From an uncultured Thermoplasmatales archaeon (lineage in GTDB: Archaea > Thermoplasmatota > E2 > DHVEG-1), in contig CAZUBH010000008.1 in the NCBI GenBank assembly GCA_964618505.1, positions 15,257-79,256 on the forward strand: DNA of 64,000 nucleotides, read 5' to 3'. Position numbers and translations under genes: made by a program. The notes under the pieces are model-generated. The model searched no databases and had not been told where the DNA came from. It was given only the letters and a program-made list of their open reading frames with translations. Shown piece after piece: positions 4,414 to 24,643 of this stretch. Numbering within the stretch: position 1 is the stretch's first letter; each line of letters begins with the position of its first letter.

Positions 4414-6459
4414 ATGATTATTTTTTTATTAAGGGGGATAAAATTGGATAAATTAAGAAAAAAAGAATTAGGAGCTGTTATTTTAACCATAATAATAATT
4501 ATTCTTTTTGTTGCTGGATGCATAATGCCAACAACTTATATGGTGGAAATGAGAGACGGTATTAAGCTTGCAACCGATGTTTATGTGCCAAAAACACAAA
4601 GCCTGCCACACGGCAGTATCTTGATAAGAACCCCATATAATAAAAATCCACTCGGTTTAATTGGTATGAATTGGGCAAAGAATGGTTGGCCAACAGTCAT
4701 ACAGGACATGAGGGGAAAATATGCATCAGATGGAATTGATACAGTATTTAGAAATGCACATACTGATGGCCCTGATACTTTGGAATGGATTGCAGATCAG
4801 TCTTGGTCAAATGGCAAAGTAGCTACATATGGCGGATCTGCTTTAGGCATAAATCAATACTACATGGCAGGAGCAAACCCTCCAAATCTTGCTTGCCAAT
4901 TCATTCAAGTTGCAACACCTAATTTATACAAACATGTGGCATTTCAAGGAGGACAATTCAGACAATCTATGGTGGAAAGATGGCTCACAAGTCAAGGAAG
5001 CCTTCATGTTTTACCTGAACTTTTTGCCCATGAAAATTATACTTTAGACTACTGGACAAATGTTTCCCTTGAAGATAATTGGGAAGATGTTAATGTGCCA
5101 GCTATACATTTTGGTGGGTGGTTTGACTGCATGCTCCAAGGTACAATAGATGGCTTTATGGGATACCAATATCTAGGCGGAACAGGTGCTCAAGAAAACT
5201 CTAAACTTATTATTGGTCCATGGACACACGGGGGCGGAAGCGGAGAACTAACTTACCCTGAAAATTCCAAAGATACATTTTCAATGGATATGTTTTGGGA
5301 CATGGTAAATCAATTTACAATGAACAGTTCAAATAATTATGATGAATGGCCAACTGTTTCCTATTATGTGCTTGGGGATGTTACAGATCCTGAGGCGCCA
5401 GGAAATGAATGGAGATATGCAGATGTTTGGCCACTTCTAGATTATTCTGAGAAAGAATGGTATTTACATGAAAACGAACAATTAAGTTTGGATAGTCCTG
5501 GGGAATATGATTCCCTAACCTACACATATGACCCATCAAATCCTGTACCAACTGTTGGAGGTCAGAATTTAAATATTGCAGCAGGTCCTTATGATCAAAC
5601 ATCAATTGAAGGAAGAGAAGATGTTTTGATATTTACAAGTGGTGAGTTTGAGGAACCATATGAAGCAACTGGCCCAATTAAGGCAAGACTTTACGTTTCA
5701 TCAAATTGCCCAGATACAGATTTTACAGTAAAATTAACCGATGTTTATCCAGATGGAAGGTCCATGCTAATTGCAGATGGCATTTTAAGAATGAGAAACA
5801 GAAATGGATTTGATCATTGGGAGTTTATGGAGCCAGAAGAAATATATGAAATTGAAGTTGATCTTTGGAGCACATCTTATATATGGAATACTGGACATAA
5901 AATAAGAGTGGCGATTTCTTCTTCTAATTACCCAAGATTTCAAAATAATCCAAACACTGAAGATCCAATGAGACAAAACACAACATATAGTGTCGCAGAA
6001 AATACTTTGTATTTTGATTCTTCATATCCATCTTGTATAATTTTACCTGAGGTTGAACAAGTAAAAACTATAAGAAATCCACCGAATGTGCCGGACATAA
6101 TATCGGCTCCCATAATTGGTAAAGCAGGAAAAGAATATATTTTTGAAGTAAAAACAACCGATCAAGATAATGACAATGTGTATTATTTGTTTGATTGGGG
6201 AGACGGAAAATTTAGTGGATGGGTTGGCCCTTATCATTCAGAAGATGTTGCCGAAATAAGTCATAATTGGGAAAATACTGGTAAATACAAAATCAGAGTT
6301 AAATCAAAATATATAAATGGATATCAGAGCGACTGGTCAGAATACATAACTATTAACCTTCCAGTTAAAAGTGTTAACATCGACAAACTAAAAACAGGTA
6401 ATGAGAAGTTGTTGACATTTTATAAACTTCAAAACCTACCATTTTTTATTGGAAAGTAA
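4414..6459 (+). CDS. CocE/NonD-family (S15 X-Pro dipeptidyl-peptidase-like) alpha/beta hydrolase with a C-terminal PKD-like domain; putative lipoprotein.
   Basis: N-terminal TM plus lipobox FVAGC. The hydrolase region shows (YVPK)...GSILIRTPY, a nucleophile-elbow-like TYGGSALG and a CocE-like beta-sandwich. The C-terminus has DWGDGKFSGW and ENTGKYKIRV, which resemble a PKD domain. Confidence 0.65.
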   Translation: MIIFLLRGIKLDKLRKKELGAVILTIIIIILFVAGCIMPTTYMVEMRDGIKLATDVYVPKTQSLPHGSILIRTPYNKNPLGLIGMNWAKNGWPTVIQDMRGKYASDGIDTVFRNAHTDGPDTLEWIADQSWSNGKVATYGGSALGINQYYMAGANPPNLACQFIQVATPNLYKHVAFQGGQFRQSMVERWLTSQGSLHVLPELFAHENYTLDYWTNVSLEDNWEDVNVPAIHFGGWFDCMLQGTIDGFMGYQYLGGTGAQENSKLIIGPWTHGGGSGELTYPENSKDTFSMDMFWDMVNQFTMNSSNNYDEWPTVSYYVLGDVTDPEAPGNEWRYADVWPLLDYSEKEWYLHENEQLSLDSPGEYDSLTYTYDPSNPVPTVGGQNLNIAAGPYDQTSIEGREDVLIFTSGEFEEPYEATGPIKARLYVSSNCPDTDFTVKLTDVYPDGRSMLIADGILRMRNRNGFDHWEFMEPEEIYEIEVDLWSTSYIWNTGHKIRVAISSSNYPRFQNNPNTEDPMRQNTTYSVAENTLYFDSSYPSCIILPEVEQVKTIRNPPNVPDIISAPIIGKAGKEYIFEVKTTDQDNDNVYYLFDWGDGKFSGWVGPYHSEDVAEISHNWENTGKYKIRVKSKYINGYQSDWSEYITINLPVKSVNIDKLKTGNEKLLTFYKLQNLPFFIGK

Positions 6460-6552
6460 ATAATATATTATATATTAATTTAAAAACATAGAAAAGTTGA
6501 TATATTACTAAACAAATTTAATTTTTAAACTATTGTCGGGGATATCGTATAT

Positions 6553-9246
6553 ATGAATAGCATCAGATTAATCTATAAAAAAACATTTACGTTTTTAATA
6601 GCTGTAATTTTTTTATTCAATATATTAAGTGTTTTATCTGTTTCTTCAGAAGAAAATAGAGATTCACCAGATCTTACTATTGCAGATATGGATATTGGTG
6701 GAGAATTTATAGAAAGAGAGATAATTACTATACATGTTGAGATTGAAAACGAAGGAGAAGAAGATGTTCTACCTGGTGAAATTATTGATATTAAGTTATT
6801 GATTGATGACGATATTGTTGACGAGAACAGTACAGATGGAGGACTTTCTGAAGGGGCTTTTGAGACTTTTGAATTATTTTGGGAGGCCGAAATAGGGTTT
6901 CATGATGTTACTGTAATTGTTGAATGTTCTGAAGACATAAATGAAGACAATAATGAAATTTCTGAAGAAATTGAAATTTTAGAAAGCGATCCATTCATCA
7001 TAGTTGAGGATTATTTCATACCCGACGATATTTCAGTTGGAGATTATATAGAAATCGAAGCCACACTAAAAAATATTGGAAAGAACACGACAAAAAAAAT
7101 TGAATGCATTTTTGATGTTGATGAGGACGGGACCAATATTGTTAAAAACAAATCAGATGGTCTTAATAGAAGTGAAACTTTTGATTTTACTTTTAATTGG
7201 ACGCCAAGCATATTTGATAATAACACAATAGAAATACGTTCAAAATTTGAGGGCGATACACAAAATACAACAGAAGAGATAGTTTTTATTAACCCATATA
7301 GAATTGATTGGTGGAATGATGATTGGCATTATAGAAAAGTCGTTGGTATAAGAAGCAATGAAACTAATTATTCTATGCGATTAAACTTTACAGAATTGTT
7401 AGAAAATTTGAATTTAGATTCTAAAACATTTGAAAATGATACAATTAGAGTAATTGAATACGAAACTGACGGAGATATTGAAGATACAAGCATTGATTAT
7501 AATTTTTCAGAAGATATTGATTTTGACAATGTTACAAATGCATTTGGAACACTTTATTGGAAACTCGACGAAGATATTTCTGAAACTAAAAAATCTTATT
7601 TTGGCATATATTTTGATGTAAAAGAAAACAATAACTCTGAACGAAGCTCAAGAAACGAGGTAAATATTACAGACCAAAACTTTACTGTTATATACAATAG
7701 TTCTTCTGAAGGATGGTGGGTAGAACCAGTAATTGATAATTATATATTGCCACTTAACAAAACTTATTCTGTAAGCGCAGAAACTAAAGCAAAATCCACA
7801 AATGTTACTGCCAAAATATATTATGAAGAGGATTTAGAAGATACAATATATCTTGAATCAAGTAACAAGGTTGACTGGGGTGACACATATAATTTTACAA
7901 AAGAGGGAAATTGGAGTTTTAGAATTCACTCAGAAGACAAAGCAGGCTTTGAAACAGAACCAGAATTTTCTGAAAATATAACAGTTGTATCAATGCCTGA
8001 CTTATCCGTAATTAAGATTTTTGTTCCTTCTGAAAATATTACTGAAGGAACTAGCGCTGAAATATTTGCTTTAATTAATAATACAGGTCTATCTGATGCC
8101 AATGATTATGAAGTAGGCCTTTACTGCTCGCAAGGTGGTAGTTTATGGAGCGAAAATAAGTTAAGATATACAAAAGAAATTGATGCAGACATAAATCAAA
8201 GCTTAAATATATCTCTAAAATGGGACCCTGCACTTTACGGAGACCCTGATGATGGGGGAGAGTGGACGGTAGGTGTTTGGATTTTTACAAATGATACAAA
8301 ATATGACTCTGATGAATCTAACAATAAAAAAACAGCTTCTAATAAACTTAAAATTAAAGAAGGCATAAAAACACCGCCAAATGTTGAGATAGTGGATATC
8401 AATGATCCTCAGGAAAGAGGAAAAACTGTAGAAATAATTGTAGAAGCAACAGATGAATCTGGTATTAATAAGATAAATATTTCAATTAAAAATCCAGAGG
8501 ACGATATGATTGTTGAAGATATGACTCATGCGCAAAATGACCGTTATTCTTATGAGTTTGAAAACACCACCTTGCTTGGAATATATAATATCACAATAAT
8601 TGCAGTAGATGATTCTTTTTATGAAAATGAAACAGAGATAGAAGGTTCATTTGAAATTATAGAGGATTCAACACCTCCAGATGTTGATTATTTAAGTGCT
8701 ATTCCAAGTGTTGCTTTGGTTGGGGATAATGTAAAAATAAAATGTATTGTAAGTGATATTAACGGTGTTAATAAAACAACTACAACAATAACATATCCAG
8801 ATGGCACAGTTGATACATTTGAAATGGAGAACTATACCAATAATACTAAATTTGAATATAGTGATTTTTATCTTACGATAGGTAAATATGAATACTACGT
8901 AACGCCAGTTGATATTTATGGAAATTCTGATGATTCTGAAACAAAAACATTTTGGATAACAGAAAATCTAGATGATACTGATAACGATGGAATGCCTGAT
9001 TTGTGGGAGGAACAATACGATTTAGATCCTCTCAATCCTGATGATGCAGACGAAGATTCAGATAACGATGGCGAAACAAATCTTGAAGAATATTTAGATG
9101 AATCGGATCCGCTAAAAAAACCTGATTTTTCAGAAGTTATTTCTCAAAGACTTGAGGAAAATTGGCCTTATTTAATATTTTCAATTGTTGTATTTGTTTT
9201 AATTGTTTTACTTTCAATAATTGGTATAAGGAGGATTAAACAATGA
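6553..9246 (+). CDS. Large acidic cell-surface protein (897 aa) with a signal peptide, many N-glycosylation sequons, Tsp3-like DxDxDG calcium-binding repeats, and a C-terminal TM anchor.
   Basis: Hydrophobic N-terminus. The composition is very D/E rich with dozens of N-x-S/T sites. Near the C-terminus are DTDNDGMPD and DSDNDGETNLEEY repeats. A C-terminal TM segment (YLIFSIVVFVLIVLLSIIGI) is followed by the basic tail RRIKQ. Confidence 0.5.
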   Translation: MNSIRLIYKKTFTFLIAVIFLFNILSVLSVSSEENRDSPDLTIADMDIGGEFIEREIITIHVEIENEGEEDVLPGEIIDIKLLIDDDIVDENSTDGGLSEGAFETFELFWEAEIGFHDVTVIVECSEDINEDNNEISEEIEILESDPFIIVEDYFIPDDISVGDYIEIEATLKNIGKNTTKKIECIFDVDEDGTNIVKNKSDGLNRSETFDFTFNWTPSIFDNNTIEIRSKFEGDTQNTTEEIVFINPYRIDWWNDDWHYRKVVGIRSNETNYSMRLNFTELLENLNLDSKTFENDTIRVIEYETDGDIEDTSIDYNFSEDIDFDNVTNAFGTLYWKLDEDISETKKSYFGIYFDVKENNNSERSSRNEVNITDQNFTVIYNSSSEGWWVEPVIDNYILPLNKTYSVSAETKAKSTNVTAKIYYEEDLEDTIYLESSNKVDWGDTYNFTKEGNWSFRIHSEDKAGFETEPEFSENITVVSMPDLSVIKIFVPSENITEGTSAEIFALINNTGLSDANDYEVGLYCSQGGSLWSENKLRYTKEIDADINQSLNISLKWDPALYGDPDDGGEWTVGVWIFTNDTKYDSDESNNKKTASNKLKIKEGIKTPPNVEIVDINDPQERGKTVEIIVEATDESGINKINISIKNPEDDMIVEDMTHAQNDRYSYEFENTTLLGIYNITIIAVDDSFYENETEIEGSFEIIEDSTPPDVDYLSAIPSVALVGDNVKIKCIVSDINGVNKTTTTITYPDGTVDTFEMENYTNNTKFEYSDFYLTIGKYEYYVTPVDIYGNSDDSETKTFWITENLDDTDNDGMPDLWEEQYDLDPLNPDDADEDSDNDGETNLEEYLDESDPLKKPDFSEVISQRLEENWPYLIFSIVVFVLIVLLSIIGIRRIKQ

Positions 9247-16582: not shown

Positions 16583-17143
16583 TTAAAAATTTACTTCAAC
16601 AAATCTTTTATCTTCTTGAGATGCCTTAAAAAGGTTAATTTTTTCAAGGTGCATTAATCTTGCAATAATTAAATCCGGAAATGATTGTATTCGTATGTTG
16701 AAGATATTTACACTATCATTATAAAATTCTCTTCTGTCTGAAAGTTCATTTTCAAGTCCAGTAATCCTGTTTTGAAGCTTTAGAAAATTATCTCTTGCTT
16801 TCAAATCAGGATAATCTTCAGCAACTGCAAAAACTGTTTTTAATAAATCTGTAATCAAACCATCAACAGCTGCTTTTCTTGATAAAGACTCAACTTGAGG
16901 AAGTGCACTTCTTGCTTTTGTTAAAGATTCTAAAGTCTTTTTCTCATGCTTCATATAACCTTTGACAGTGTTTACTAGATTTGGTATTTCATTGGACCTT
17001 TGTTTTAGGAGAACATCGATATTTGCCCATGATTTATCTATATTGTTTCTTAACCTAATCAATCCATTATATATGACTATTATAGAAACAAAAAATGCTA
17101 TCAATATAAGAATCAATCCTGCAGCTATAATTATTCCAATCAT
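16583..17143 (-). CDS. lemA: LemA family protein.
   Basis: N-terminal TM segment followed by the conserved LemA core (YNGLIRLRNNIDKSWANIDVLLKQR...). Confidence 0.8.
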   Translation of the reverse strand: MIGIIIAAGLILILIAFFVSIIVIYNGLIRLRNNIDKSWANIDVLLKQRSNEIPNLVNTVKGYMKHEKKTLESLTKARSALPQVESLSRKAAVDGLITDLLKTVFAVAEDYPDLKARDNFLKLQNRITGLENELSDRREFYNDSVNIFNIRIQSFPDLIIARLMHLEKINLFKASQEDKRFVEVNF

Positions 17144-17155
17144 TTCAAATTCTCC

Positions 17156-17899
17156 TCATAAAACTAAAAATATTAAACCAATTATTATGAAAATTGAACC
17201 AAGTATCAACCCAAAGAAAGCCTTGCCTGCAAATGATCTTAAAACACCACTTTCTTTTTTATCTGATATGTAATAAAATTTTTCATGATTGCCTTTTTTA
17301 ATCATAACATCCTCAACACCTTTTTTTACAGATGCCTCTTCAACATATGGATTATCTGTAGCATTTCCAATAATATAGATTTTGTCACCAGTTGCAATGT
17401 GCCATTCTGAGTATCTCATAGTTTTGTTTATCCCAAAAAATCCTTCATATTTAACCCCAACTGATTCTAAAAACGGCTTTGCCGATTCCAAAGGATCATT
17501 CCCAAGACTTGACCTAAAAAAACCATCTTTTGAAAGTTCAATTTTAGCATCTTTCGGATTAACAAGAACTTGCCCCGTTTCATCTTTTAAGTAAAACAAT
17601 TGACTTTCCTCGCCTTTTTTTATAGTGGCCCAGTGGCTGTTTTTACCCGAACTTCTATATTCTTCAATCTTATATTTGTAATAAACACAAGGTTTTTGAA
17701 AAAAAGGACTTTTTAAAACACAATCTTTTTTTGCTACGACTTCCCCATATATTTCTACAAGACCCATAGCAATAGAACGAATTTTTGATGTAGGAATGTT
17801 TTCAATTAATCTTTTCCTTCTGAAAGAAATAACTCCCCAAATAAATAATCCAATCCCAATTGAAAGAAAGATTATTGAGAATATAATAGTCCCTATCAT
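17156..17899 (-). CDS. GIDE-domain membrane protein (the usual LemA partner) with N- and C-terminal TM segments.
   Basis: TM segments at both ends and a central soluble domain (IYGEVVAKKD...CVYYKYKIEEY). It lies directly downstream of lemA, the usual arrangement for this pair. Confidence 0.55.
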   Translation of the reverse strand: MIGTIIFSIIFLSIGIGLFIWGVISFRRKRLIENIPTSKIRSIAMGLVEIYGEVVAKKDCVLKSPFFQKPCVYYKYKIEEYRSSGKNSHWATIKKGEESQLFYLKDETGQVLVNPKDAKIELSKDGFFRSSLGNDPLESAKPFLESVGVKYEGFFGINKTMRYSEWHIATGDKIYIIGNATDNPYVEEASVKKGVEDVMIKKGNHEKFYYISDKKESGVLRSFAGKAFFGLILGSIFIIIGLIFLVL

Positions 17900-18845: not shown

Positions 18846-19856
18846 TTGAGAAAAATATTAGGTTTTTTAATTTTTATGATGCTATTGGTTACATTTTTGT
18901 CTACTACCAACGCTATTGAAAAAAACGAAGATAAAATGACTATCTCTCTTCAGCCAATGCCATTGTATTTTGGAGTAAAAATTGTTATTAAAAACACAGG
19001 AAATAACACGATTAGCGATATTGATTGGGGTTTAAAAACTGAAGGCGGAATTTTTCTTAGAGGAGGACTAGCAAATGGAAGTTGTGAGAGATTAAAACCA
19101 GACGAAGAATTAATTATTAGCTTTAATCCATTTTTTGGACAAAATAAGGGCCCTAGAGGCTTTGGGCAAATAGAAATGGAGGCAACTGCAAACTCCTCAG
19201 GAATTGAAGAAGTTAGGACAACAGCCGAAGCATTTCAACTTGCCTTTTTAACCATTTTTAACTCTGATGAGGGAGACACAGTTAAATATAAAGTTACTTT
19301 TGATTCAATATGGAGTAAAGAAAATCATCCTGATGACTTTCCTGGCAATCCACACTTTTCTGGATTAATTGGAGCCTCTCATAATGAAAATGTGACCTTT
19401 TGGGAAACTGGGGAATTAGCTTCAGAAGGGATTAAAAATATGGCAGAAACTGGAAGTAAACAACCACTTGATAGTGAGATTCAACAGGCGATCGATCAAG
19501 GAACTGCGTTTAAATTATTATCTGGAGATGGGCTTCCTATATCACCCGGTTCTGTTAATCTCACTTTTAAGGTGAAGCAAAGTCATCCTTTAGTAACTCT
19601 TGTAACTATGATTGCTCCAAGTCCTGATTGGTTTGTTGGTGTAAACAGCTTAAATCTCTATGAAAACGCTTCTTTTCTTGATGAAAAAATTGTAGTATTA
19701 TATGCTTATGATTCAGGAACTGATAGTGGAGAAAGTTATGAATCTCCTGACGATCCCACTAATCCACCAGTACCAATATTCAAAATTGAAGGATATCCGT
19801 TTTTCTATGAAGACGAACTAGTTTATTTAGGTACATTGACATTTACAAAGATTTAA
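18846..19856 (+). CDS. Secreted protein with an N-terminal about-110-aa domain (paralogous to that of 22186..22992) followed by a Spondin_N-like domain.
   Basis: Signal peptide. PRGFGQIEM matches PRGFGRVYM in 22992..22186. The spondin-like region reads HFSGLIGASHN...SPDWFVGV. TTG start preceded by AAGGGG. Confidence 0.5.
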   Translation: MRKILGFLIFMMLLVTFLSTTNAIEKNEDKMTISLQPMPLYFGVKIVIKNTGNNTISDIDWGLKTEGGIFLRGGLANGSCERLKPDEELIISFNPFFGQNKGPRGFGQIEMEATANSSGIEEVRTTAEAFQLAFLTIFNSDEGDTVKYKVTFDSIWSKENHPDDFPGNPHFSGLIGASHNENVTFWETGELASEGIKNMAETGSKQPLDSEIQQAIDQGTAFKLLSGDGLPISPGSVNLTFKVKQSHPLVTLVTMIAPSPDWFVGVNSLNLYENASFLDEKIVVLYAYDSGTDSGESYESPDDPTNPPVPIFKIEGYPFFYEDELVYLGTLTFTKI

Positions 19857-20041: not shown

Positions 20042-21598
20042 ATGAAAATATATCGGTTCGTAACGGTATTTATAATCATTATTTTTTCAATTCTGAATTT
20101 TTTATTGATAATAAATGACACCCATTCTTTAAAAGCTATTGATTCTACTGATCTTATCGGTCACTGGACTTTTAATGAAGGATCTGGTTCTAAAATATTT
20201 GATACATCTGGAAAAGAATATCATGGTAATATTCATGGCGCAAGCTGGACTCGGGGGGTAAATGGTTCGGGACTTTCTTTTAATGGTGAAGATAATTACA
20301 TAGAGATACCTAATAATGATGACTTAAATGGCATTACTGAATTTACAATATCTATCTGGTTTAAAGTCGACTATTTTGATATTTGGGAACCTTTGGTAAA
20401 CAAAGGATATACAAACGAAGGATTTACAGATGTTTTTGAAATAAATATTGACCAAGGGGGTTATGTTTCATTTGTATTAAATTTTGATACGATGGGTAGA
20501 CAAACATATTCAACTTCTCCTGGAACGATTATTGCTGGAACGTGGCATCATCTAGTCGGAAGTTATGATGGAGATTTTCTAAGAATTTACATAGATTCTG
20601 AGTTAGTTTCTGAACATGATGTTTATAACGAACCTCTTAAAACAAGCGATGCTTCTTTGTATATTGGTGTTGAGTATGAGTACCCAGATGAAAGCTATTT
20701 TAATGGTGCAATAGACGAAATAACATTATTTGCCAGATATATTGAATCTGATGAAGTTTTTGAGTTGTATACACAAAAAGCAATCAAACCTCTAATTAAA
20801 AATAATCTTAAAATCAATCACGGCGCAGAAAGAAGCCCATTAATTGCTATATTACCAAAACAAGCAATACCTGTTGTAGCAACTATTACAAGTGTTATAT
20901 TTATTATCCTCTGGCAACTTTTTGGAAATTTGATTATGGAGTTTCTTAGTGATTACACAAGTGAAAAAATTATTGATATAAAAGCGACAAAAAAGAATTT
21001 TTCAGAAAAACTAGACAAAATTAAAATCCCCTATATTTCGATGAAAACGTCTGATATAGTAAATCTTGGAATTGCAGTTTTCGTTTTTTCAGCTGCAATG
21101 AGTTGGACTTGGTCAGATGGTTTAGAAGACATATTAGGATTATTTATTTTAAATTTTTTTGTAGTAGGTTTTATTTTTACATTACGGGAAGCTTATAGAA
21201 TTTATTATTCAAATAAAAACAAAATTGAAACTAAACATATAATTTGGCCATTTGGCTCAATTCTTACAATTTTAAGCACGTTTATTGGCAATACCTTTTC
21301 TCTTGCTTCTTATGTTACAGCAGATAATGAAGAGGATAATAGATATGCCCAAATGCTTTATCAGTCAACAATAATTTTTTATATGGTCTCTTTAGTAGCC
21401 TTTTCTTTGAATTTTATAAAACCCAATGTAGTATTACAAATGATTTTTGTTTTTTGTATTATGACTGTCATGATTGACATGACGCCAATAAAGCCAATGG
21501 ATGGAGATATAATTAGAAAATGGAATACAAAATATTGGTTGATTTTATATAGTATTATAGGAGTTTCTTATTTAATCATGATTTTCAATCTTTATTGA
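20042..21598 (+). CDS. Membrane protein with an extracellular LamG/concanavalin-like domain fused to an inactive site-2-protease (M50)-like polytopic domain.
   Basis: The LamG-like region reads HWTFNEGSGS...GLSFNGEDNYIEIPN...FTISIWFKVD. The C-terminal TM domain aligns with the neighbouring M50 protease, including PIKPMDGDIIRKWN against PIDPLDGAKVIRWN, but HExxH is replaced by LREAY. Confidence 0.5.
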   Translation: MKIYRFVTVFIIIIFSILNFLLIINDTHSLKAIDSTDLIGHWTFNEGSGSKIFDTSGKEYHGNIHGASWTRGVNGSGLSFNGEDNYIEIPNNDDLNGITEFTISIWFKVDYFDIWEPLVNKGYTNEGFTDVFEINIDQGGYVSFVLNFDTMGRQTYSTSPGTIIAGTWHHLVGSYDGDFLRIYIDSELVSEHDVYNEPLKTSDASLYIGVEYEYPDESYFNGAIDEITLFARYIESDEVFELYTQKAIKPLIKNNLKINHGAERSPLIAILPKQAIPVVATITSVIFIILWQLFGNLIMEFLSDYTSEKIIDIKATKKNFSEKLDKIKIPYISMKTSDIVNLGIAVFVFSAAMSWTWSDGLEDILGLFILNFFVVGFIFTLREAYRIYYSNKNKIETKHIIWPFGSILTILSTFIGNTFSLASYVTADNEEDNRYAQMLYQSTIIFYMVSLVAFSLNFIKPNVVLQMIFVFCIMTVMIDMTPIKPMDGDIIRKWNTKYWLILYSIIGVSYLIMIFNLY

Positions 21599-22185: not shown

Positions 22186-22992
22186 TTAGGTTTCAGTAGG
22201 AAATCCTGCTTCTACCCAGGCCCTGTAGTTACCTTCAAGTCTATATGTATTTTTAATACCTGCATCAACCAAGGTTTGTGCGCTATCTGTTGATGGGGGA
22301 TCCGTATGACAATAAACTAGATATGTTCCATTTATGTCAAGATTAGAAACTTCTTCTTCTAATGTTCCATCAGCCCATACATAATTAACTGCACCGGGCA
22401 AATGACCCAGACTATAAATATCAAGACCAACAACATCGATTACCAAATCAAACGTATCGTTCATTAATAAAGAATACGCTTTGTCTGGAGGGATGTCTAT
22501 GTAAGTATCTTTCATATCATATATAATGCACAATAAAAGAAAACATTGTTTTTGAGCACTTATCATTTCAGTCTCATTTGCTTTTGCCTGCAAGCTCATA
22601 TATACTCTTCCAAAACCTCTAGGACTTGGCATTGTGGGGCTTAGATAAGGTCTTAATACAATCGTTATTTCTTCACCAGCTTTAAGCTCATTAATTACCT
22701 GGCTACATACATCTCCTTTGCCAATAATAGCTGTAATAACGGCTTTTGTACTAAAACACCAATTTATGTTTGTTAAATCTTCAGAACCAGTATTTTTAAA
22801 AGTTAGTTCAACTCCCCTATATAAAAAACCTGGTTCAATAGCTAATTCTAGGCCATAGTTTTCAGTTCTTGTTAAAGATTCTTTTTTTGTAGTAATATTT
22901 TTTGGTAAATAAGTTATTGAACTACCTATTGTTGTAGAGATCAATATTAAAAAAATCAATCCAACAATCATTTTTATATAAATATTTTTCAT
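22186..22992 (-). CDS. Secreted two-domain protein: the paralogous N-terminal domain (shared with 18846..19856) plus a C-terminal rhodanese-like domain.
   Basis: Signal peptide. The rhodanese-like region reads LVIDV...GHLPGAVNYVW...YLVYCHTD...AWVEAGFP, but the CRxGxR active-site loop is non-canonical (CHTDPPS). Confidence 0.5.
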   Translation of the reverse strand: MKNIYIKMIVGLIFLILISTTIGSSITYLPKNITTKKESLTRTENYGLELAIEPGFLYRGVELTFKNTGSEDLTNINWCFSTKAVITAIIGKGDVCSQVINELKAGEEITIVLRPYLSPTMPSPRGFGRVYMSLQAKANETEMISAQKQCFLLLCIIYDMKDTYIDIPPDKAYSLLMNDTFDLVIDVVGLDIYSLGHLPGAVNYVWADGTLEEEVSNLDINGTYLVYCHTDPPSTDSAQTLVDAGIKNTYRLEGNYRAWVEAGFPTET

Positions 22993-23114: not shown

Positions 23115-23885
23115 TTATTGAAGACCTTTCATCTTCTTTTCTTTTTCTATAGCCTTAAAAATCGTGATATCGCCCTTTAAAACTTCTATGGCTGCTTTTT
23201 TTGATATAGAATACTTACCATCTGTAAGATTTCTACTTTTTCTTTGTAAGTTTTTTATTGCACCTCTAGTGGGCTCTAGTGGTAATGTGGATTGGACCCT
23301 ACCTCCAGAAATCATTGCAATTAACGCAGCAGAATCACTATCTTTTACATTTCTTCCTACATTTTTTGCAATTGTAGTGCTTGTTTCATTAACAATTTCA
23401 ATTGGTATATTGAGACCTATTAGAGAATTTATTATTCTATTTCTAATCAAAATTGAACCATGCCCGATTCTTATATAAACATCTTTAGATGGAAATAATT
23501 TCAGTAATCTTTTTACAGTTGACAATACTTTTTCAGGATTATCAACTTGTAGTTTTTTTAGAAGTAATTCATTACCAACTACTGCAATTCCAGGGTGATC
23601 TCCAGGATCAATTCCAATAAATACCTTTGAATAAAATTTCTTTCCGATTAATTTTCTTAAAGCCATGTCTATAGCATGATCTACAGTATCAAAAGTATCT
23701 GCTGATACTATCTTTTGTGATTGTATTTCTGTAACTTCTTTTTGAGACGTTAATACAACTCCAATTTTGTTTGGTATATTTTTTGGTGAAGAAAGTAAAA
23801 CATAGGCAAGATTCCTTTTCTTTAAAGCTTTTATTATGTCATGGTACAAAGAAAAATCCCTAGTAAAAACACCCAAAGTTTTCAT
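23115..23885 (-). CDS. Hypothetical protein with an RNase H-like / ASKHA-like fold signature (IGIDPGDHPGIAVV).
   Basis: VFIGIDPGDHPGIAVVG resembles the first beta-hairpin of RuvC/YqgF-like or ASKHA proteins. No firmer assignment is possible by eye. Confidence 0.3.
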   Translation of the reverse strand: MKTLGVFTRDFSLYHDIIKALKKRNLAYVLLSSPKNIPNKIGVVLTSQKEVTEIQSQKIVSADTFDTVDHAIDMALRKLIGKKFYSKVFIGIDPGDHPGIAVVGNELLLKKLQVDNPEKVLSTVKRLLKLFPSKDVYIRIGHGSILIRNRIINSLIGLNIPIEIVNETSTTIAKNVGRNVKDSDSAALIAMISGGRVQSTLPLEPTRGAIKNLQRKSRNLTDGKYSISKKAAIEVLKGDITIFKAIEKEKKMKGLQ

Positions 23886-23923: not shown

Positions 23924-24643
23924 TTAAAATAATGGAACAACTCTAAAAATTAAAAATGAAATTGAAATAGCTAAAATAAAAAGTAAAGCCCAAGCAATTC
24001 CATTCCATCTAATTACTTTTGCACCGTCCAATGGATCAATAGGAACTAAATTAAAAGTTCCAAGAAGCGCGTTAACAAGACAAACAAAACCAAATATGTT
24101 TGCCAAAAATATCCACTCAAAAAAATATAGATATAAAACATACGAAATTATTGCTATAGAAATATTTGCAGCAGGTCCAGATGCCGCGATTTTACCTGTT
24201 TCAAAAGCTCTAGTGTCACCTCTAAACATGACTGCACCAGGTACTGCAACGACAAAACCAGTTAACATAGCAAGTAGAAGTGAAACCAGCAAGCCTTTTG
24301 GATACATTCTATATTCTGACCATAAGCCATGTCTTTGAGCCATAAATTTATGTGAAATTTCATGTACAAAAAAAGCCGTCAATATGCCCAAAAATGATCG
24401 TGGTATTGAATACAAAAAAATCGAAATATTAAAATTATATAAAGGCGAAGTTAGAAAAGAAAATGCAAGAGTTAAAACACCCATTGATATTAGTATTTGC
24501 TGGATTTCTATTTTACTAAAAGAACCAGGCTTACCTGATTCAAGGGTTCCTTTTGGTACATACATGTATTCCCTTGGAGAAAGATCGTGAAATGAAGTGT
24601 AAACTTTTCTTTTTCTCTCCATCATAACTCCCAATTTAACCAA
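23924..24643 (-). CDS. Site-2 protease family (M50) intramembrane metalloprotease.
   Basis: HExxH in FFVHEISHKF, an LDG motif in PIDPLDGAKVIRWN, and multiple TM segments. Confidence 0.75.
   Translation of the reverse strand: MVKLGVMMERKRKVYTSFHDLSPREYMYVPKGTLESGKPGSFSKIEIQQILISMGVLTLAFSFLTSPLYNFNISIFLYSIPRSFLGILTAFFVHEISHKFMAQRHGLWSEYRMYPKGLLVSLLLAMLTGFVVAVPGAVMFRGDTRAFETGKIAASGPAANISIAIISYVLYLYFFEWIFLANIFGFVCLVNALLGTFNLVPIDPLDGAKVIRWNGIAWALLFILAISISFLIFRVVPLF

Follow-up and report, generated by a model that had tools for sequence, protein, structure and literature searches.

What becomes of an intramembrane protease once both of its zinc-binding histidines have been exchanged for arginines, and the exchange is kept by its descendants? 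The question is raised by a gene located in a 64,000-nucleotide stretch of contig CAZUBH010000008.1 (assembly GCA_964618505.1, from an uncultured Thermoplasmatales archaeon), to which we refer as the window and which is AT-rich (GC ~31%). The gene lies at positions 20042..21598 of the + strand and encodes a protein of 518 amino acids (aa). An original prediction, made from the letters of the window, had described it as an inactive site-2 protease (S2P) carrying an extracellular LamG domain, as a paralog of an adjacent M50 protease, and as a possible receptor or regulator of that protease. The open reading frame (ORF) is as described, with an ATG start; the same gene is called at the same locus in Logan assembly L001, and we found a fragment (P0001) 100% identical to the 518-aa protein, as well as 26 full-length orthologues. 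In this protein, both zinc-binding His of the HExxH motif are replaced by Arg (R382 and R386), and the catalytic Glu (E383) and the Asp of the LDG motif (D487) are kept.

Homology of the C-terminal domain to M50 proteases

The similarity of the LDG region to M50, on which the prediction relied, is real: BLASTP aligns residues 463-512 of the protein with residues 178-232 of the neighbouring M50 (33% identity, pairwise E=9e-6). Pairwise similarity alone is insufficient, because BLASTP finds no other segment, the Pfam M50 model (PF02163, gathering threshold 27.2 bits) matches neither the protein nor any of 21 members of its family alignment, even at E<=1, and a search of PDB sequences with the profile of this alignment returned chance antibody matches alone (E>1). 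Relatives with an intact HExxH fall below the PF02163 threshold too (23.4 bits for P0263). For the C-terminal half of the protein, a Foldseek search against PDB yielded noise, and Pfam and NCBIfam contributed a single weak, partial match, to NF041501 ('cola_mem'; 26 bits, the cutoff being 150). This model also matches the true M50, and we rejected the match as an uninformative domain assignment. In both proteins, NF041501 ('FGLLP motif-containing membrane protein') weakly matches the region of the LDG helix (aa 463-510 of the protein studied here and aa 190-228 of the neighbouring M50, 26-27 bits), suggesting that the NF041501 family may itself be M50-related.

The profile-profile comparison that the prediction had proposed as a check gives a clear answer. 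We compared an alignment of the membrane-domain family (A1; 21 sequences, 261-position profile) with an alignment of the neighbour's M50 family (A2; 22 sequences), and hhalign matched them over 176 columns with a probability of 97.3% (E=1.9e-11). Followed by column count, the register places R382, E383 and R386 on the H, E and H of HExxH, and P-M-D-G on P-L-D-G. MAFFT, used independently, arrives at the same register, with a gradient that runs from HEISH in canonical M50 through HELSH or HEISH in intact members of the family, then RSSIR or RHLTR, then RELAR, to REAYR in our protein. The pairs and triplets YPxG/WPxG, GFVFAAPG/GNAFG/GNTFSL and PLDG/PMPG/PMDG are in register as well.

Relatives bridging the two families provide further support. 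Among ~170 relatives inspected, ~25 carry an intact HExxH at the exact aligned position, together with an LDG motif, and most of these intact members match most or nearly all of the 261-position A1 profile (juxtamembrane S-P-L, first transmembrane (TM) helix, termed TM-A, linker and core). Against the canonical M50 profile, intact members score a median of 38 bits (maximum 80) and Arg-substituted members a median of 20 bits. As hhalign, the MAFFT register and the bridging intact relatives all agree, the similarity to M50 is not spurious. The features by which M50 membership is recognized structurally and evolutionarily, namely a polytopic core fold and a three-helix catalytic core with a membrane-reentrant beta element, are all found, and the AlphaFold2 (AF2) model cited for this fold has a mean predicted local distance difference test (pLDDT) of 84.1 and a predicted template modelling score (pTM) of 0.79. 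The C-terminal domain is, on these alignments, a true and very divergent M50/S2P core, with a core identity to canonical M50 of ~20%.

Replacement of the zinc-binding histidines

Two short segments contain the former catalytic positions:

21185..21199, + strand: R382-E-A-Y-R386, at the position of H-E-x-x-H (register of hhalign and MAFFT)
21494..21505, + strand: P-M-D-G (aa 485-488), the LDG equivalent, in which D487, the third zinc ligand, is retained (BLASTP, hhalign and MAFFT)

The prediction had HExxH replaced by LREAY. The loss holds, and the replacing motif is better read as R-E-A-Y-R, with Arg in place of both His and the Glu kept. HExxH occurs nowhere in the protein or in 35 close relatives, and all further members inspected in genomes and metagenomes carry [R/K]-[E/D]-x-x-R, none of them HExxH; orthologues thus conserve the loss. 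In the wider family, we counted RExxR (58), HExxH (25), RSxxR (20), RHxxR (13), RNxxR (8), KExxR (5) and some minor variants at the HExxH position, and D (74), P (35), S (16), A (14) and G (9) at the position of the LDG Asp. Residue frequencies at the four positions are as follows:

Position 382: R 0.82 in the degenerate clade, H 1.00 in intact members
Position 383: E 0.50 in the degenerate clade, E 0.92 in intact members
Position 386: R 1.00 in the degenerate clade, H 1.00 in intact members
Position 487: D 0.38 in the degenerate clade, D 0.83 in intact members

Thus, 62% of the members of the wider Arg clade no longer have the LDG Asp. The two acids, E383 and D487, tend to go together (both in 46 members, neither in 58, Glu only in 26 and Asp only in 5), although these counts are phylogenetically confounded. 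That the arginines were kept while the acids were lost points to selection on the arginines, and argues that the pocket has acquired a new role and has not simply decayed neutrally.

A further catalytic feature has changed throughout the family. The Asn of NxxPxxxLDG, known in RseP as the 'Asn clamp' (PMC11864173), is replaced by D479 in our protein, and the position is E (65), D (63), Q (22) or N (4) in the family, intact members included. Among the marks of an active M50 enzyme, HExxH and the Asn of NxxP are thus missing, and the LDG Asp is present. Because the first two are missing and the Pfam threshold is not reached, the protein should not be filed as an M50 peptidase.

Could the metal be held by other residues, a possibility that the prediction had itself raised as an objection? 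We found no alternative set of His or Cys conserved across the degenerate clade. H399 is conserved (0.96) in the close LamG subclade only, and the position is Tyr elsewhere. A family-wide alternative metal site is ruled out by these two observations.

Family and phylogeny

Searching all of 1.84 billion representatives exhaustively with the A1 profile (hmmsearch) returned at least 546 family representatives at 50% identity (a lower bound) at E<=1e-3, of which 208 pass a cutoff of E<=1e-10 and 89 one of E<=1e-30. They are distributed among Thermoplasmatota, Woesearchaeota, Nanoarchaeota, Micrarchaeia and Altiarchaeota, and the closest genome matches are found in Thermoplasmatota and in metagenome-assembled genomes (MAGs) labelled 'uncultured Thermoplasmatales'. 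Intact members, like the others, are annotated only as 'hypothetical protein'.

In a rough neighbor-joining tree of the core, rooted on canonical M50, the HExxH members are basal, beside canonical M50, and 125 of the 132 Arg-type representatives form a single clade without HExxH. One, or at most two, His-to-Arg switches would thus account for the whole set. Within the Arg clade, core identity to P0002 (a close orthologue of our protein) ranges from 20% to 65%, and the second Arg is invariant throughout. The family is, by these sequence relationships, a separate and deep archaeal M50 subfamily with intact basal members. A recent duplication of the nearby M50 was considered and ruled out by the low core identity (~20%), by the depth and wide distribution of the family, and by its intact basal members; the description as a paralog of the adjacent protease must be given up in this sense, as the 546 representatives belong to a subfamily of their own with intact HExxH at its base.

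The membrane module (juxtamembrane motif, TM-A, linker and core) is constant in the family, and what precedes it varies. Ectodomains consist of LamG alone (~505-525 aa proteins), LamG with a ~140-aa insert (~640-667 aa), the insert alone (~415-425 aa), NosD/beta-helix with PKD (876-1202 aa) or, in most DPANN members, an uncharacterised domain of ~150 aa. Intact members are shorter (~320-470 aa, median 424 aa) and have no LamG domain; their N-terminal regions extend over ~150-270 aa before the membrane module and, in P0271 and P0294, show weak matches to S_layer_C. The ~140-aa insert, for which no Pfam match was found, lies between LamG and the membrane module in P0013, P0028-P0030 and the 667-aa protein of locus L011; P0032 carries it as well, in an N-terminal part that has no LamG. 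One MAG (CAYPIF01, isolate SRP067234_co1_304) carries two diverged paralogues (loci L009 and L011), which have different ectodomains and 55% and 44% identity to the core of our protein.

Conserved scaffold and membrane topology

The best-conserved part of the core lies between the two former catalytic segments:

21230..21322, + strand: predicted membrane-reentrant beta-hairpin (aa 397-427), with W-P-F-G and G-N-T-F-S-L, the most conserved motifs (AF2 and alignment)

In the AF2 model, strands 397-401 and 423-427 flank a helix at 403-415. Conservation in degenerate and intact members alike is >=0.96 for W402, G405 and G416, 0.75-0.86 for N417 and 0.74-1.00 for F419, and the region aligns in MAFFT with the YPxG...GFVFAAPG of canonical M50. 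The hairpin is, as modelled, the predicted counterpart of the membrane-reentrant beta-sheet of S2Ps. In RseP, unwound substrate docks by strand addition to this sheet, next to the zinc (PMC11864173). Other residues common to degenerate and intact members are found along the whole module: S265-P-L, P277 and A280 (in TM-A), E338, Q466, P482, G488, W494, W499 and F515, in addition to W402-x-x-G405 and G416-N-x-F419. The degenerate core also has, in common with small archaeal M50 proteases, an R/K-W-N motif after the LDG. The family can be recognized by the signature S-P-L ... [R/K]-x-x-x-R ... W-P-x-G ... G-N-T-F-S ... P-x-x-P-x-x-G ... W.

The protein as a whole is organized as follows (all on the + strand):

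20042..21598: whole coding sequence, LamG, tether, TM helix, linker and degenerate M50 core (ORF list; ATG start, 518 aa plus stop)
20057..20113: N-terminal hydrophobic helix (aa 6-24, FVTVFIIIIFSILNFLLII; Kyte-Doolittle peak 3.03, K2 and R5 before the helix, AF2 helix 2-26)
20153..20779: LamG/concanavalin-like jelly-roll (aa 38-246), predicted extracellular (Pfam, AF2, Foldseek, acidic charge)
20816..20842: juxtamembrane motif N-H-G-A-E-R-S-P-L (aa 259-267), conserved in relatives, just outside TM-A
20858..20938: TM-A (aa 273-299), predicted to run from out to in (hydropathy peak 276-294, AF2 helix 273-305)
20939..21046: basic cytoplasmic linker (aa 300-335; SDYTSEK motif, 8 K/R), from charge count and the positive-inside rule, with an AF2 helix at 309-324 of low pLDDT
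21047..21595: degenerate M50/S2P core (aa 336-518)

The helix at aa 6-24 may be either a signal peptide or an N-in signal anchor. N259 and S265 of the juxtamembrane motif are invariant among close relatives, and S-P-L is present in intact HExxH members too; the motif may be a processing site, a hinge or a point of contact with the core. Hydropathy and the positive-inside rule place TM-A at ~277-299 and the K/R-rich linker at 300-337 and, within the core, predict a TM helix at 338-356, an outside loop of six residues, and a second TM helix (363-381), after which comes a basic loop. R382-E-A-Y-R386 would thus stand at the cytoplasmic end of the latter helix, in the place and orientation that HExxH has in S2Ps. 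The topology prediction, another check proposed at the outset, likewise puts the LamG domain outside. The full-length AF2 model (pLDDT 83.4, pTM 0.54) has a low-confidence tether at 247-265, and its modest pTM is as expected for two domains that are flexibly linked. Taken together, the data show a signal or anchor helix, an extracellular LamG domain on a flexible tether, a single TM helix, a linker that is basic and cytoplasmic and, last, the M50 core.

LamG ectodomain

The N-terminal half is, as predicted, LamG/concanavalin-like and placed outside the membrane. Pfam Laminin_G_3 (PF13385) matches residues 81-239 (E=8.4e-27; 94.6 bits against a cutoff of 27.6), with weaker matches to Laminin_G_2 and Toxin_R_bind_N in the same half. 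In the full-length AF2 model, residues 38-230 form a beta-sandwich (pLDDT ~90), and the jelly-roll by which members of the LamG/concanavalin A-like lectin-glucanase superfamily are recognized is present. Among solved structures, Foldseek finds the nearest folds in the lectin-like HcN domains of the tetanus and botulinum (clostridial) neurotoxins (E=1e-11), which agrees with the weak Toxin_R_bind_N match. Finally, the segment is acidic (39 D/E against 16 K/R), which fits an outside location.

A non-catalytic role for the S2P fold

What, then, might such a protein do? Arg side chains are not normally Zn2+ ligands, and with His replaced by Arg at both ligand positions, the protein should neither bind zinc nor hydrolyse peptide bonds. 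The substrate-docking scaffold of S2Ps (the hairpin and the helices of the TM cavity) is by comparison the most conserved part, so that the protein most likely still binds something in its cleft. We consider it reasonably probable that it serves, on an S2P fold, as a receptor, scaffold or sequestering factor without catalytic activity. In its mechanism it would resemble iRhoms and Derlins among the rhomboids, and EGY3 among the S2Ps of plants.

The mechanism that we propose within this reading is the following. A dead S2P (MEROPS M50) fold would be displayed as a type-I-like surface protein, with two guanidinium groups filling the former metal pocket at the cytoplasmic face. The cleft would hold, without cleaving it, something such as a TM segment, a lipid or an anionic head group. 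In the protein studied here, the arginines are probably, as a conjecture, salt-bridged to E383 and D487; in relatives that lack both acids, they would probably be free for an anionic partner. The interchangeable ectodomain would bind an external glycan or protein, and, as a secondary aspect, the protein may be functionally connected with the active small M50 of the cell. In its most specific form, which we offer tentatively and do not regard as likely, the invariant Arg pair would mark a neofunctionalised ligand pocket instead of a dead site, and the Arg clade would be a new class of archaeal TM receptors on the S2P fold, in which the exchangeable ectodomain senses an external glycan or protein and controls the capture, at the cytoplasmic face, of an anionic lipid or of a client TM or juxtamembrane segment. 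In some lineages, the client would be a substrate of the active small M50, and archaea would thus have evolved, independently, a counterpart of the relationship between iRhoms and rhomboids.

Several points weigh against a dead, ligand-binding S2P. The loss of activity is argued from residue chemistry alone, and in the protein studied here a non-canonical metal or catalytic site made of E383, H399 and D487 may exist, as each of these residues is conserved at 0.93-0.96 in the close LamG subclade. Replacement of the Asn clamp by Asp, Glu or Gln suggests that substrate handling may differ from that of RseP. Finally, no conserved partner gene was found: unbiased clustering of flanking ORFs recovered no neighbour shared by more than 4 of the 39 non-redundant groups of loci.

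Relationship to the active M50 and genomic context

A narrower version of the receptor reading is that the dead core, in the manner of an iRhom, binds substrates of the active small M50 or forms a heterodimer with this enzyme, the binding of a ligand by LamG gating regulated intramembrane proteolysis. This sub-case, which is close to what had originally been predicted, can be examined through the genomic surroundings of the gene. The M50 of the window is:

23924..24622, - strand: canonical small archaeal M50, 232 aa as called, with HEISH at 24350-24364 and PLDG at 24023-24034 (Pfam Peptidase_M50, E=3.6e-10)

It belongs to a family that is very widespread in archaea, with 525 homologues at E<=1e-5, many of them named 'Zn-dependent protease', and it forms the tail of a ribosomal supercluster (...S5-L30-Rpb6-S2-TraB-M50). 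It is thus a housekeeping gene, and membership of the same system as our gene is not implied. Contrary to what had been stated, the two genes are not adjacent: they are convergent, and three unrelated genes (SOUL, rhodanese and a 256-aa ORF) lie between them.

To evaluate how often an M50 occurs near family genes, we scanned 69 family loci with the A2 profile (~484 kb of flank; up to 8-10 kb each, many contigs being shorter). An M50 was found in 3 of the 69 loci (L011, L034 and L014), which, with the window, makes 4 of ~70 loci in three lineages. L011 and L034 have the same arrangement, in which the M50 (5870-6556 and 5830-6522, respectively, both on the - strand) is directly upstream of, and divergent from, the gene for the 667-aa LamG-insert-pseudoM50 protein (6786-8789 and 6777-8786, both on the + strand). 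In L014, an RNase_H_2 gene separates the M50 (6083-6703, - strand) from the family gene (7503-8777, + strand). These three loci come from Thermoplasmatales and an unclassified archaeon, and their flanking genes are unrelated to those of the window. Within the available flanks, no M50 was found in the orthologous loci L002-L007, nor in L019-L021. By a rough estimate of our own (one M50 per 1-1.5 Mb genome), ~0.3-0.5 M50-bearing loci would be expected by chance. Such mild enrichment could stem from a functional link in occasional cases, or from an origin by local duplication of which it would be a relic; it is far from a conserved operon.

A conserved operon partner was rejected more generally, given the clustering result and the lack of relationship between upstream genes of different clades (Spondin_N in the window, a 390-aa protein in L002 and L004, and a 250-aa membrane protein in L006). 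The gene appears to behave as a stand-alone unit.

A regulator of the active M50 would find support in the occurrence of M50 at four loci with differing flanking genes, mildly above the chance estimate, in the R/K-W-N motif found in both proteins, and in the fact that, among M50 types, the small archaeal one is specifically the nearest to the degenerate core, which the A2 profile matches and the generic Pfam M50 does not. However, ~94% of the loci have no M50 in the available flank, the M50 of the window belongs to the ribosomal S2-TraB cluster, proximity could equally be a relic of local duplication, and the flanking-ORF clustering reveals no recurrent candidate substrate (an anti-sigma-like or membrane-tethered regulator, for example) near the family genes. 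We regard this sub-case as unlikely, though worth keeping. Of the earlier proposal of a receptor or regulator of the active S2P, what stands is a pseudoprotease with an extracellular LamG domain; its link to the S2P is weak.

The remaining surroundings of the gene are as follows. A Spondin_N-domain protein is encoded upstream on the same strand, 186 bp away, and downstream a convergent SOUL haem-binding gene ends 15 bp away. The Spondin_N protein (18846..19856, + strand; Pfam E=2.7e-51) is unusual for an archaeon, and it has in common with the rhodanese protein (22186..22992, - strand) a homologous N-terminal domain of ~130 aa located after the signal sequences (BLASTP 25% over 148 aa, E=8e-14; no Pfam match), which looks like a reusable secreted or cell-surface module. 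The 256-aa ORF (23115..23885, - strand) is directly downstream of the M50 on the same strand; it has no Pfam match and contains a 'GIDPG...GIAVV' segment. LemA (E=1.3e-48; 16583..17143, - strand) and a GIDE-like membrane protein (E=8.5e-15; 17156..17899, - strand) adjoin each other, and the pair is also present in L001. Elsewhere, family genes are often found among very large secreted or surface proteins (flanks of L002, L004, L006/L007 and L011), such as Ricin-lectin/PKD proteins of 1219-2288 aa, a NosD/beta-helix/PKD protein of 1117 aa, an S8-beta-helix-PKD protein of 1317 aa and C25 peptidases, a hint that the neighbourhood serves the cell surface or extracellular degradation.

Anchor or enzyme

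Those same neighbours (PKD, beta-helix, Ricin, S8 and C25) could indicate something simpler than a receptor, namely that the degenerate bundle is a stable polytopic anchor for adhesin or lectin ectodomains, the former active site having no ligand role. The free swapping of ectodomains on a constant membrane module and the lack of a conserved partner gene agree with such a passive role. However, a mere anchor would not need an Arg that stays invariant in >125 representatives with core identities as low as 20%, nor would it need the near-invariant W-P-F-G and G-N-T-F-S-L or the conserved cytoplasmic linker, and archaeal surface proteins usually have single-pass anchors. We consider a passive anchor improbable. 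That the protein is still an enzyme, a non-canonical hydrolase or other catalyst using E383 and D487 (with H399) and binding substrate or transition state through its arginines, is highly improbable in spite of the strong selection on the arginines and the conservation of the three residues in the close LamG subclade, as no catalytic set is kept family-wide (Glu 0.50 and Asp 0.38 in the Arg clade, 58 members with neither, Tyr in place of H399 elsewhere), and we know of no precedent for a metal-free M50.

Comparison with known systems

One comparison is with active S2Ps themselves. Small archaeal M50 proteases (A2) and the S2P of M. jannaschii (PDB 3B4R) have in common with our protein an xExxx TM helix, the reentrant hairpin (YPxG or WPFG), the P-x-D-G helix and the R/K-W-N motif after the LDG, as well as the same inferred membrane orientation of the active-site helix. 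Our protein differs from them by its two His-to-Arg replacements, by Asp instead of the NxxP Asn, by the lack of a PF02163 match and by a core identity of ~20%, and it is extended by an additional TM helix on the N-terminal side, a linker in the cytoplasm and a large LamG domain outside the cell. Intact members of the subfamily (P0263 from Micrarchaeia, P0294 from Altiarchaeota, and P0245) have the same membrane module and scaffold residues as our protein; they differ in being shorter, basal and without LamG, and in the presence of HExxH (1.00) and of the LDG Asp (0.83), and they are presumably active. RseP-type S2Ps similarly combine an S2P core with an extracytoplasmic domain above the TM cavity (PMC11864173), but RseP is a working protease and carries its PDZ tandem as an insertion between core helices, whereas our protein has an N-terminal ectodomain, and the ectodomain folds are different.

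Pseudoenzymes are common, and MEROPS lists unnamed 'non-peptidase homologues' for many families. An S2P homologue without HExxH, the loss being conserved in orthologues, corresponds to what is called an S2P pseudoprotease in PMC10978774, and our protein has both properties. The example described there and in PMC9355673 is EGY3, an S2P homologue of Arabidopsis chloroplasts that lacks HExxH, is regarded as non-proteolytic and stabilises other proteins; PMC9355673 calls it the sole S2P-family pseudoenzyme, 'identified only in plant cells'. EGY3 differs from our protein in being plant-specific and thylakoid-located, and the portions of these sources that were available report neither a LamG-type ectodomain nor a His-to-Arg signature for it. 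The occurrence of our family in archaea rather than plants, and its basal intact archaeal relatives, suggest an origin independent of EGY3, which was compared by description only.

iRhoms, like our protein, have an added extramembrane domain. According to PMC3149277, iRhoms and Derlins are rhomboid-fold pseudoproteases that have lost their catalytic residues, still bind clients, and act as regulators and scaffolds. Their relationship to our protein is one of analogy, not homology, as they have an unrelated serine-protease fold, are eukaryotic, and have experimentally established functions.

Implications

In the literature that we covered, which is incomplete, no archaeal or other prokaryotic S2P pseudoprotease and no His-to-Arg S2P clade was found described, and M50 goes unmentioned in a 2024 review of pseudo-metallopeptidases (PMC11266112). 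Intramembrane pseudoproteases such as iRhoms and Derlins are key regulators in eukaryotes, and on the S2P/M50 side EGY3 alone is named as a pseudoenzyme in the literature searched. Our results, which are a solid bioinformatic observation rather than a demonstrated mechanism, add a large unannotated archaeal M50 subfamily, of which no representative attains the M50 threshold of Pfam and which includes one ancient clade whose two zinc-binding His were replaced by Arg and have stayed so ever since, while extracellular binding domains were shuffled. What makes them valuable is how large and old the Arg clade is and how clean its signature, together with the existence of intact sister proteins: as intact and Arg-substituted members have the same architecture, they constitute a natural experiment on the S2P scaffold without catalysis. 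The members of the family are also candidates for surface receptors of Thermoplasmatota and DPANN archaea, uncultured organisms in which signalling is almost unknown.

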